Source of the DNA: a virus
Taxonomy: Duplodnaviria > Heunggongvirae > Uroviricota > Caudoviricetes
Reading direction: 5' to 3' (one strand)
Virus record (IMG/VR): IMGVR_UViG_2703718869_000015
Length of the DNA stretch: 13,521 nt
A program made the position numbers. Of this stretch, positions 1 to 3,000 are shown one piece after another. Within the stretch, counting starts at the first letter, position 1. Every line of letters starts with the position of its first letter.

Positions 1-3000
1 CACGCTGACGCAGTCACCGGTCAGTGCCTTTGCGGCGGATAAACTGCATGTGACAGACATTACCAGAGGTGCGACTTACCCGGTACTGATAGACAGCATT
101 GCGGTGGAAGTGAACAGCACAGACACTGCGGCATGATAAAAAAACCGCCAGCGACAGGAATGGACGCTGGCGGTGGTGATACCTATGGAGAAAAAATAAA
201 GGAACGATACTTTCGTACTCTGGTTTTTAATGAAAACAGTTCTTATTGTCAACAATAGCGGAAAGAAATTATGACATTTCTGAACCAGTTAATGCTGTAC
301 TTCTGTACGGTGGTCTGTGTGCTGTATCTCCTTTCGGGTGGGTACAGGGCCATGCGTGACTTCTGGCGCAGACAGATTGACAAAAGGGCCGCTGAGAAAA
401 TCAGCGCCAGTCAGTCAGCCGGAAGCAAACCCGAAGAGCCGCTCATTTAGCGGCAACTTTCTTAATCACACCTTTCGACGAGAAAATCCCATGTCAGAAA
501 TTACATCCCTGGTCACTGCAGAGGCAGTGAAGGACGTCCTGCGCTCTGAAGAAGTCCGGAGCGCACTGAAACAGAAACTTCGCCATAACCTGGAAGCGCG
601 TCTTGATGCAGAAGTGGATGCCATTCTGGATGAACTGCTTGGTGTACAGGCAGAGCCACCGACTGAAGCGGGAGATACCACCGCAGAGAGCGGTGAAGTT
701 CAGCCTGAATCACCGGTCGCCGATGCGACTGAACCTCAACCCGAATCGGTCATGATGCTGTAACGGGGAGTCAGGGCCATCAGTAAACAGCTGCTGGCCT
801 TTTTCATGTTGTGAGCTTCCGGATTGCGGGAGACGGGGTATGTACCAGATGGAAAAAATCACAACAGGTGTGTCATACACCACGTCAGCGGTGGGAACGG
901 GCTACTGGTTCCTGCAGTTGCTGGACAGGGTTTCCCCGTCTCAGTGGGCGGCAATAGGCGTGCTGGGGAGTCTGCTGTTTGGTCTGCTGACGTACCTGAC
1001 GAACCTGTATTTCAAGATTAAAGAAGACCGGCGTAAGGCGGCGCGGGGAGAGTAAGCTGATGAGCAGGAAATTCCGCTATGGTTTATCAGCGGTAGTTCT
1101 GGCGCTGATTGCCGCAGGTGCTTCTGCGCCTGAAATCCTCGACCAGTTTCTGGATGAAAAGGAAGGTAACCACACCACGGCATACCGTGATGGTGCGGGG
1201 ATCTGGACCATCTGCCGTGGTGCCATTCTGGTGGATGGTAAGCCTGTTATTCCTGGCATGAAGCTGTCAAAGGAAAAATGCGACCGGGTTAATGCCATCG
1301 AACGTGACAAGGCGCTGGCATGGGTGGAGAAAAACATCAAAGTGCCGCTGACCGAACCCCAGAAAGCGGGGATCGCGTCATTCTGTCCGTATAACATTGG
1401 CCCCGGTAAGTGTTTCCCGTCGACGTTTTATAAACGAATTAATGCAGGTGATCGAAAAGGTGCCTGCGAAGCGATTCGCTGGTGGATTAAGGACGGTGGC
1501 AGAGACTGCCGTATCCGTTCAAATAATTGCTACGGTCAGGTCTCACGGCGTGACCAGGAGAGCGCGCTGGCGTGCTGGGACATCGACAGATAGCAGAATA
1601 TTTTCCTGAAAAATGACGTTGGCCAACGCGGGTGGATAACACGAAATCCTGAAAACTGGTAAAACCTAAGTGAATAAAAGTAAAAACCCCGTTTGTTGGC
1701 AGCAAGCGGGGTTTTGTGTTTTCTGACCTTGAGTAAGGCAAGGGAGAAATTATGGGTAGGGAGGTACTTTCCCTGTGAGGAAGTATAAAAGATTCTTTCT
1801 GAGGTTGTCCATTATGAAAGGCATTGAAGTGGAGACGCCAGCCAGTCTGGATTTAACAAGAGCGGCAGCTTTTGCCATTCGTATTGTGGCCATTGCTGTT
1901 CTGGTCTGGGCAATCCGTTGGTGGTGATATGAACCGTGTTCTGTGCGTGGTTATCATTGTCCTGCTGGTGGCCTGTGGTGCGCTTAGTCTGGGGCTGAAT
2001 CATTACCGTGATCACGCCATCATCTACAAAGAGCAGCGCGATAAAAAAGCCAGTGAGCTGGAGCTGGCGAACGCGACAATTACTGATATGCAGATACGCC
2101 AGCGTGATGTCGCTGCACTTGATGCCAGATACTCGAGGGAATTAGCCGATGCGAGAGCTGAAAATGAAACTCTGCGTGCTGATGTTGCCGCTGGTCGTAA
2201 GCGCCTGCGGATCAACGCCACCTGCTCCGGTACCGTGCGTGAAGCCACCGGCACCTCCGGCGTGGATAATGCAACCGGCCCCCGACTGGCAGACACCGCT
2301 GAACGGGATTATTTCATCCTCAGAGAACGGTTGATGACAATGCAGAAGCAGCTGGAAGGGGTACAGGACTATATCCGCACTCAGTGCCTGAACTAAGTTT
2401 TGCTGATGCGCCGTATCGTCGCTGTATTCCCTCATTAACAGAGACCGCAGCCCGACAGGGAGACTACTCTGCGCGAGTGTGCGGGGATAATCAAAAACGA
2501 TGCACACCGGGTTTTCTCATTTTTCACGAGATGGGAGCGATTTCCCGCGAAGCCGCCTGTCCGGTGCGGTGGTGGAAGAAACCGGATAAAACAACCGCAT
2601 TGTGCAAATATCGATCAAATATGGTGCTGCTGTGTGAAATCTGAAAAATCACAGCGGTCATTATGCATCAGTTTTTAACACAGGACGTCAGAACGTGACA
2701 TGGCAAAGCTGGACTGGAAAAAGCTGGAGCAGGCATTCCGACGCGAACATGCCGAAACGGGAATAACATTACTGGACTGGTGCCGGAAGAAAAAGATTAA
2801 TTACAACACCGCCAGAACCCGTATAAAAATGGGCAAAATCGATCATGAAATTGATCATAAAACCGATCATGAAATCGATCATGACATCTCAGATGAAGAA
2901 CCCTGCAATGACGCGGGTTCCGGCGATGAAAAATGCGCAAAAAACTCTGAAAAAAACTGCGCAAATTCGGCAGAAACGAAACGGATTCGTGGTTCCCGAC

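Follow-up and report, generated by a model that had tools for sequence, protein, structure and literature searches.

A predicted terminator hairpin and a small putative membrane protein gene occupy a mosaic accessory slot between the endolysin and spanin genes of enterobacterial lambdoid prophages

We analyzed a 13,521-nt stretch of E. coli prophage DNA (IMG/VR record IMGVR_UViG_2703718869_000015, hereafter the window), focusing on the spacer that separates the endolysin gene R from the spanin genes Rz and Rz1. All coordinates refer to the whole stretch, and gene identities were checked with Pfam. A lysis cassette of the phage 21 type occupies bases 1-2400 (Table 1). The last base of the endolysin stop codon is 1593, and Rz begins with its ATG at 1929; the spacer between them measures exactly 335 bp and contains the 3' untranslated region (UTR) of the endolysin gene, a terminator-type hairpin, a short leader and an open reading frame (ORF) for a 37-aa protein with a hydrophobic C-terminal part. 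The spacer of about 335 bp, the strong hairpin and the small ORF ending one base before the Rz start were all part of the original prediction, which had been made from the sequence alone, and each was found as described.

R and Rz/Rz1 are adjacent in phage 21. In lambda, for which the same adjacency had been claimed, the two genes overlap by 4 nt, and an overlap of R and Rz is likewise present in DLP12 and Qin, two prophages of K-12. Therefore, the spacer is a real difference from lambda, DLP12 and Qin. Of 5426 complete E. coli genomes, 674 contain the whole spacer at a coverage of at least 80%, and 2037, roughly a third, contain at least the hairpin module (the first ~155 nt). The feature is far more than chance. 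Alignment with phage records revealed that its 5' part, the endolysin 3' UTR and the hairpin, is conserved and that its 3' part is variable.

Table 1. Features of the lysis cassette and of the spacer between endolysin and spanin genes in the window.
Feature	Position	Strand	Match or remark
DUF1378 small protein, 59 aa, hydrophobic N-terminus	271-450		between esterase and holin genes
DUF826 small protein, 90 aa, acidic	491-763		between esterase and holin genes
P21-type holin S (pinholin), 71 aa, Met1/Met4 dual start	840-1055	+	PF04971, E 7e-33
Endolysin R, 177 aa, hydrophobic N-terminus, signal-anchor-release (SAR) type, R21-like	1060-1593	+	Phage_lysozyme PF00959, E 3e-24
Spacer, 335 bp	1594-1928		
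Conserved segment of the endolysin 3' UTR, 88 nt	1594-1681	+	
Terminator-type hairpin	1683-1723	+	A-tract, 15-pair stem (1683-1715), 3-nt loop, U-rich tail
Leader	1741-1778	+	Shine-Dalgarno (SD) sequence AGGGAG 1741-1746; 8-codon mini-ORF, ATG 1752 to TGA 1776-1778
Possible long form, 50 aa, starting at GTG	1775-1927	+	basic N-terminal extension RKYKRFFLRLSI; phrog_4493 over its full length, E 1.4e-24
37-aa single-pass membrane protein gene (putative)	1814-1927	+	ATG 1814, TGA 1925-1927, SD GAGG 1801-1804
Junction GGTGGTGA-T-ATG	1920-1931	+	last Trp-Trp-stop codons of the small ORF
i-spanin Rz	1929-2396	+	PF03245, E 9e-50
o-spanin Rz1, embedded in Rz, +1 frame	2149-2334	+	PF06085, E 2e-21

Among 80 IMG/VR contigs encoding close relatives of Rz, the distance between endolysin gene and Rz could be measured in 72. 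The slot was filled in every one of these loci; its length ranged from 297 to 1426 bp, never came near zero and fell into distinct classes (297/298, 331/335, 438-491, 642, 993-995 and 1413-1426 bp). It holds one to four small ORFs of 28-60 aa with one hydrophobic helix each, combined from three families: family A (VFDFSKLIREIR...GQIRWW; phrog_6632), family B (MSDKLITPAKVLCVIVG...; phrog_4906) and family C, which comprises the protein of the window and its 38-60-aa relatives (phrog_4493/1115/3246). All of these PHROG groups are annotated as function unknown. In the 642-bp class (24 loci), four small ORFs follow one another, each stop adjoining or overlapping the next start, and the larger classes (993-1426 bp) add antirepressor-like genes, as in Sakai Sp10, or insertion sequences. 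A scan of genome contigs with Rz recovered 4 loci only. These sequences identify the 335 bp as an accessory slot, regular and mosaic, that is part of enterobacterial lambdoid lysis cassettes, and not as damage. Alignment with related prophages, which had been proposed together with the original prediction, showed that the slot holds small membrane ORFs, at times accompanied by cargo, and that the reading frame is conserved. The notion of an interrupted cassette was not borne out, since no measurable related locus has an empty slot and both ends of the slot, the hairpin on one side and the ...TGGTGGTGA-N-ATG junction on the other, are module boundaries that have been conserved. The proposal that the spacer is a remnant of cargo gain or loss stood in part: the R-Rz site does gain and lose antirepressors and the LT-II operon, and the leader of the window carries a 23-nt insertion, but its description as a vestige did not hold.

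Two loci illustrate the range of slot contents. In L094/L095, an LT-II enterotoxin operon (Enterotoxin_a and LT-IIB, 787-1924) lies between a GH108 endolysin gene and the hairpin/small-ORF unit. In L112, an E. fergusonii prophage, the gap between endolysin and i-spanin genes (2163-2500) contains two tandem copies of the module, in the order hairpin 1, a small transmembrane ORF ending in ...VKWW-stop, an ATG with a few Rz-like codons, hairpin 2, an SD sequence and a family-A ORF. This duplication looks like a recombination footprint at the WW-stop-ATG junction and the hairpin.

The 37-aa protein (MKGIEVETPASLDLTRAAAFAIRIVAIAVLVWAIRWW) is identical to ECs_1094 of the Sakai annotation and to WP_000675931.1 of the Prokaryotic Genome Annotation Pipeline (PGAP), and its residues 16-34 form a hydrophobic stretch (19 residues, mean Kyte-Doolittle value 2.1). 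Selection on the ORF was evaluated with the DNA of seven contexts (window, GER2, L092, L094, L096, L100 and L102). Synonymous divergence was high (pS 0.52) and nonsynonymous divergence low (pN 0.078), giving a pN/pS ratio of 0.15 vs 1.26 and 1.99 in the other two frames. Variable columns numbered 14, 4 and 27 at codon positions 1, 2 and 3, respectively, and the replacements were conservative, mainly I/V/L/A exchanges in the helix. This pattern indicates strong purifying selection on the protein, which argues that the ORF is no vestige. The original prediction had left open whether the ORF encodes a real membrane peptide or is a relic; purifying selection, the PHROG match and the existing PGAP and Sakai annotations favor the former, and the ratio in the coding frame compared with the control frames speaks against the latter.

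Profile searches matched the small protein to phrog_4493 (E 5.5e-16 for the 37-aa form; the full profile was covered by the 50-aa form described below) and to phrog_1115 (E 2e-11), and on this basis we assign the gene to PHROG 4493/1115 as an uncharacterized member. Homologues were found in Escherichia, Citrobacter, Yersinia and Salmonella records only. A family-C profile recovered just 29 matches among 1.84 billion clustered protein representatives; therefore, the family, one of Enterobacteriaceae prophages, is narrow, and the search revealed no link to a characterized family. Common to the 29 representatives are the head MK(N)G(L/I)E..AP, the motif AFAI(R/K), whose F-A-I core is invariant, and the helix; their C-termini read either ...(R/K)WW or ...ALKS. 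AlphaFold2 modeled the 50-aa form as a low-confidence N-terminal helix followed by a confident 29-residue helix (residues 21-49), with a predicted local distance difference test score (pLDDT) above 90 over residues 31-50. Pfam and NCBIfam searches, holin families included, gave no match for the small slot ORFs of families A, B and C. The 37-50-aa protein has neither a lipobox Cys nor a soluble or periplasm-spanning domain, as a spanin would, and Rz and Rz1 are separately present.

The small gene is placed with the i-spanin gene whatever endolysin and holin genes precede it. The 37-aa variants P0011 and P0012 both occur with Phage_holin_8 / 3_7 and are followed by Rz, the former behind a Peptidase_M15_4 endolysin gene and the latter behind GH108. 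Variant P0019 follows a Phage_lysozyme endolysin gene in a cassette with a P21 holin and precedes Rz, and P0021 follows GH108 and the LT-II enterotoxin A/B operon in a Phage_holin_3_7 context in which the next gene is not confirmed as Rz. A 60-aa relative from Salmonella lies between a different lysozyme gene and Rz (Phage_holin_2_3). Family A likewise precedes a PF03245 Rz in Salmonella (lysozyme, Phage_holin_2_3) and a DUF2514-type i-spanin in E. fergusonii (GH19, Phage_holin_8). A single nucleotide separates the small ORF from the i-spanin ATG in all 37-aa and family-A cases with an identified i-spanin, and for the 60-aa gene of Salmonella the distance to Rz is 10 nt. Furthermore, the junction CGN-TGG-TGG-TGA-N-ATG (CGNTGGTGGTGA-N-ATG) is the same before divergent Rz genes and before the DUF2514 i-spanin. 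We infer that the Trp-Trp-stop codons act as an SD-like sequence, GGTGGTGA, and as a coupling site for Rz, which would explain why the unrelated families A and C share an IRWW tail. This linkage pattern favors a spanin-related role or a shared recombination boundary. A role specific to SAR endolysins or pinholins, of the releasin or antiholin kind, was considered and is disfavored, since the gene is also found behind M15, GH108 and GH19 endolysins and together with class-8 / 3_7 holins.

The hairpin was the best terminator-like site in a consensus scan of 1-3000. Six of its 15 stem pairs are G-C, UUUU closes the stem and is followed by GUGUUUUCUG, and the tail after 1715 reads GTGTTTTCTG. The RNA fold of the + strand reached -21.4 kcal/mol (z = -4.0 vs dinucleotide shuffles), in keeping with the strong terminator predicted there, and that of the - strand -14.2 kcal/mol. 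The sense strand is ~7 kcal/mol stronger as U.G pairs of the stem turn into C.A mismatches on the opposite strand, and the hairpin variant of L003 has additional wobble pairs. This sense-strand advantage from wobble pairs suggests that the hairpin is selected as a sense-strand RNA. From its stem and U-tract, it is a predicted intrinsic terminator.

The hairpin stands at the 5' edge of the small-ORF/i-spanin unit in every context, with stems that differ by A-U to G-C, G-C to A-U and U.G to G-C changes. Its arms read CCCCGTTTG...CAAGCGGGG in the window, GCCCCGGTTG...CAATCGGGGC in L092, CCCCAG...CTGGGG in L096, CCCCGAACG...CGATCGGGG in L105 and CCCGGCTG...CAGTCCGGG in L094/95; slots of the antirepressor type carry an unrelated hairpin, GGCACCGTAATGGTGCC, with a T-run at the equivalent place. 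In an alignment of 13 hairpin sequences, 87% of the cells are paired, and in three pairs both partners change. Of 500 shuffles, 16 reached the same covariation score, which is modest support from limited diversity.

The conserved 3' UTR segment upstream of the hairpin diverges by 6-15% (20% in one locus of the antirepressor type) vs 16-28% at fourfold sites of R. It contains a ~45-nt motif, CTGAAAAATG...GGTGGATAACAC.AAATCC (also given as CTGAAAAATG...GGTGGATAACA..AAATCC), that is common to E. coli and Salmonella prophages with different endolysins (L105 and L110, ~2330-2410). In some lineages it can be read as a short ORF that ends just before the hairpin, and this frame is broken in the window. 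A DnaA-box-like sequence in the 3' UTR, GTGGATAAC, was dismissed since its key bases vary between lineages. Rfam gave no match at gathering thresholds over the whole window, and permissive thresholds returned only terminator-shaped noise in 1400-2100.

Between the hairpin and the 37-aa gene, the leader may provide a second start. The stop codon of the 8-codon mini-ORF overlaps the GTG of the possible long form (GTGA). In the 60-aa sister genes, the protein MEKYKRILLRLTMKNG... begins at an ATG behind a strong SD sequence (AAGGGAGAA). Relative to these genes, 23 nt are inserted in the window directly behind the ancestral ATG, and it is this insertion that created the mini-ORF. An equivalent 8-codon mini-ORF with a TTGA overlap is present in L102. 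The basic extension is kept as KYKR(I/F)(L/F)LRL in the 60-aa relatives. All lineages retain the internal ATG and the GAGG SD sequence before it; an in-frame upstream start (GTG, TTG or ATG) is found in most and is missing in L094. Two products differing by a basic N-terminal extension are therefore possible on the basis of these start sites. Families A and B and the long forms of family C have a net positive charge on the N-terminal side, as does Rz, and an N-in/C-out topology like that of the Rz anchor is thus predicted for them.

A simple consensus scan detected no sigma-70-like site on the + strand of 1-3000. Q antiterminator genes lie upstream in syntenic loci, and Q-modified polymerase reads through intrinsic terminators in lambda. 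The cassette is accordingly placed in the Q-dependent late operon, and with read-through by Q-modified polymerase a drop of spanin expression, which the original prediction had made conditional on a lack of antitermination, would not be expected during lytic growth. With no promoter after the hairpin and a stop codon 1 nt from the Rz ATG, the small protein is probably late and made together with Rz/Rz1. Lambda and the K-12 prophages do without the small gene, which would thus not be essential for lysis.

Taken as a whole, these observations are best explained by a two-part accessory slot, in which the hairpin is a boundary and the small gene encodes a Q-dependent late membrane protein that serves as a lysis accessory. 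We give this explanation a probability of roughly 55%. The hairpin, located after the endolysin 3' UTR, would mark the end of the holin-endolysin block. During lytic growth, Q-modified RNA polymerase would read through it, and in the lysogen it would stop unmodified polymerase before the spanin and morphogenesis genes; it may also stabilize the 3' end of the holin-endolysin mRNA. The small gene would yield a 37-aa single-pass inner-membrane protein and possibly, by reinitiation at GTG 1775 after the 8-codon leader ORF, a 50-aa form. Made late in step with Rz/Rz1, the protein would insert in the inner membrane beside the Rz anchor. It might then tune the membrane stage of lysis, either the function or the timing of spanin or holin, which is the weakest step of the scheme.

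Several observations weigh against this explanation. A weak or non-sigma-70 promoter would be compatible with a scan for consensus sites only. Many prophage copies of the slot ORFs are frameshifted or truncated, and ORF number and family vary freely, which fits dispensable accessory genes with non-lysis functions equally well. P0120, a 66-aa relative of family C found on three contigs and located in Salmonella L108/L109 at 2501-2701, follows tail-fiber genes (DUF4376) beside phrog_4772, away from any recognizable spanin. This is the only context found that breaks the spanin linkage, and the N-terminal extension of P0120 is acidic, not basic. Linkage to Rz could also stem from recombination at conserved boundary sequences and not from shared function. 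In the LT-II lineage (L094/L095, 2385-2420), the stem is kept and the 3' U-tract is absent; termination may therefore not be the only role of the hairpin, which could also be a 3'-end stability element or a module boundary. Moreover, literature searches for ECs1094, WP_000675931 and locus tags returned no paper that mentions them, and the 37-aa ORF is not listed in the supplements of a Sakai Ribo-seq study. The lysis-cassette passages of a survey of Shiga toxin (Stx) phages (PMC8136144) deal with holin, endolysin and Rz/Rz1 only, and the phrase 'between the endolysin' gave no match in that paper.

In a bolder version of the lysis accessory explanation, the proteins of families A, B and C would be lysis modulators coupled to the spanins and would represent a class of their own, new to lysis cassettes: tiny inner-membrane proteins stoichiometric with the i-spanin. 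WW-stop-ATG coupling would set their amount, and action on the Rz anchor or the holin would set the time or place at which the envelope is breached. In family C, the dual start would work as a built-in switch between a basic long form and a short form, by analogy with holin/antiholin pairs. We regard this version as rather unlikely, with an outside chance of being right.

The small protein can be compared by description only with known lysis accessory proteins, namely the antiholins lambda S107 and S21-71, P1 LydB, T4 RI and the 'releasin' Mu gp25. Like antiholins and releasin, it is predicted to be tiny, with one transmembrane helix, and to be co-transcribed with holin, endolysin and spanin genes from within a lysis cassette; its gene is also dispensable in related phages. 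A dual start adding a basic N-terminal extension may further resemble the logic of S107/S105. Unlike antiholins, the gene matches no holin Pfam family, in a cassette that already has a P21-type holin, and unlike both antiholins and releasin it is tied to the i-spanin gene and not to one holin or endolysin family. The slot also resembles the morons of lambdoid late operons, among which lambda bor and lom, stx and HK97 gp15 are named (Juhala et al. 2000, as cited in PMC4104026), in being extra DNA at a fixed late-operon position that varies among similar phages and is shared with antirepressor and LT-II toxin genes. A classical moron is expressed in the lysogen, with a promoter of its own in front and a terminator behind. 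In the slot, by comparison, the consensus scan of 1-3000 found no + strand promoter, the hairpin lies upstream and the ORF runs into Rz.

The hairpin itself shares a GC-rich stem, a sense-strand U-tract and, in syntenic loci, an upstream Q gene with lambda tR' and the terminators downstream of it. It differs from tR' in lying between two lysis genes as a conserved module boundary and in having lost the U-tract in one lineage. Small RNAs (sRNAs) of prophages of enterohemorrhagic and enteropathogenic E. coli (AgvB, AsxR, EcOnc and Pas) are also short conserved elements with terminator hairpins in the same prophages. Unlike the hairpin of the window, AgvB, AsxR and EcOnc are located at the pR' moron site, Pas between esterase and holin genes, and EcOnc10-12 downstream of Rz. 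Identity with a known prophage sRNA was rejected, as the Sakai peaks from Hfq-CRAC (cross-linking and analysis of cDNA) that we compared with the maps of Sp4 and Sp10 all lie outside an R-Rz slot.

The main rival of the lysis accessory explanation holds that the small membrane proteins are lysogenic-conversion cargo expressed from the prophage, for example for superinfection exclusion or modulation of the host envelope, and that the slot merely tolerates insertions. Small single-pass inner-membrane proteins are typical of exclusion functions, the slot is a hotspot for antirepressors, the LT-II toxin operon and insertion sequences, its one to four ORFs from three families are freely combined and frequently lost, and one relative lies in the tail-fiber moron region. 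We nevertheless consider the cargo explanation unlikely: PADLOC defense profiles gave no match for families A, B and C, no promoter-like site separates the hairpin from the ORFs and the terminator stands upstream, unlike in classical morons, the ORFs are tightly coupled to one another and to Rz, and the stop-1nt-ATG position is maintained over five endolysin families and two i-spanin families. That same junction, with TGG-TGG-TGA forming an SD-like sequence 1 nt before Rz and an identical RWW-stop tail grafted onto the unrelated families A and C, is also what would be expected if translation of the ORF only brought ribosomes to the Rz start and the peptide had no function. Selection acts along the whole ORF and not on its 3' end alone, as the pN/pS ratio of 0.15 indicates, and relatives with the other ending, ...ALKS, 10 nt from Rz, still contain both MK(N)G(L/I)E..AP and AFAI(R/K), which makes a pure coupling device improbable.

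The size and hydrophobicity of the peptide would also suit the toxin of a type-I toxin-antitoxin-like pair, in which a minus-strand site at 1811..1782 would drive a ~100-nt antisense RNA ending at a two-way hairpin. This site (TGGACA-18-TATACT) agrees with the consensus at 10 of 12 positions and is retained in the window-type loci L092, L094, L096, L100 and L102; the A-tract 5' of the hairpin, read on the minus strand, would serve as a T-run, in the LT-II lineage too. In the 3 kb scanned, however, chance alone would give 2.3 promoter-like hits, more than the one observed. As a main explanation, an antisense sRNA or type-I toxin was rejected, since the hairpin is much weaker on the minus strand (G.U to C.A) and the 60-aa and family-A versions have not retained the promoter-like site. 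Rfam had no match, the R-Rz slot of Sakai Sp4 is free of Hfq-CRAC sRNA peaks, and we judge such a pair very improbable. Least credible of all is a decaying remnant of deleted cargo with a vestigial or chance frame. Frameshifted copies do exist, the 23-nt insertion in the leader of the window breaks the ancestral long-form start, and the 3' UTR resembles a broken reading frame ending just before the hairpin. Against decay stand the frame-specific synonymous excess, with 27 variable third positions vs 4 second positions, the match of the gene to a PHROG family, and the identical architecture in Escherichia, Salmonella, Citrobacter and Yersinia records.

Other features were observed in the neighborhood of the slot. 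The pair of small genes for DUF1378 and DUF826 proteins is also found in many related prophages. Directly after the stop of a truncated upstream gene, which is a SASA-family esterase gene in syntenic loci, positions 137-180 hold an A run followed by a GC-rich hairpin (CCGCCAGCG...CGCTGGCGG) that on the minus strand is a strong terminator followed by T7. This hairpin falls in the esterase-to-holin interval, where a 2026 preprint places the PasA/PasC sRNAs. Just downstream of Rz, intergenic positions 2410-2579 are 82% identical to the region of Sakai Sp10 that holds EcOnc11. This Hfq-CRAC peak is antisense to the late operon and has twins in Sp12 (EcOnc10) and Sp9 (EcOnc12). The equivalent of the EcOnc11 peak lies at ~2470-2518 on the minus strand, with a minus-strand terminator-like site nearby at 2467..2447, and the window thus probably carries a homologue of this unstudied Hfq-bound RNA. 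Further downstream, a 268-aa ORF (2700-3506) with a His/Asp repeat (KIDHEIDHKTDHEIDHD) precedes a large-terminase-like ORF and has no Pfam match.

Lambdoid lysis cassettes are treated as fully understood in terms of holin, endolysin and spanins. The slot described here adds a conserved extra layer between endolysin and spanin, composed of a hairpin and one to four small membrane proteins under selection, in prophages that include those carrying Shiga toxin and LT-II genes. It also corrects the notion that the spacer is damage and that a terminator at this position necessarily starves the spanins. If the small proteins affect lysis timing or spanin action, they may influence phage burst and the release of toxin from pathogenic E. 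coli, and the textbook pathway would gain one more component. If they have no role in lysis, the slot would be a clear example of how conserved module boundaries drive mosaic recombination.

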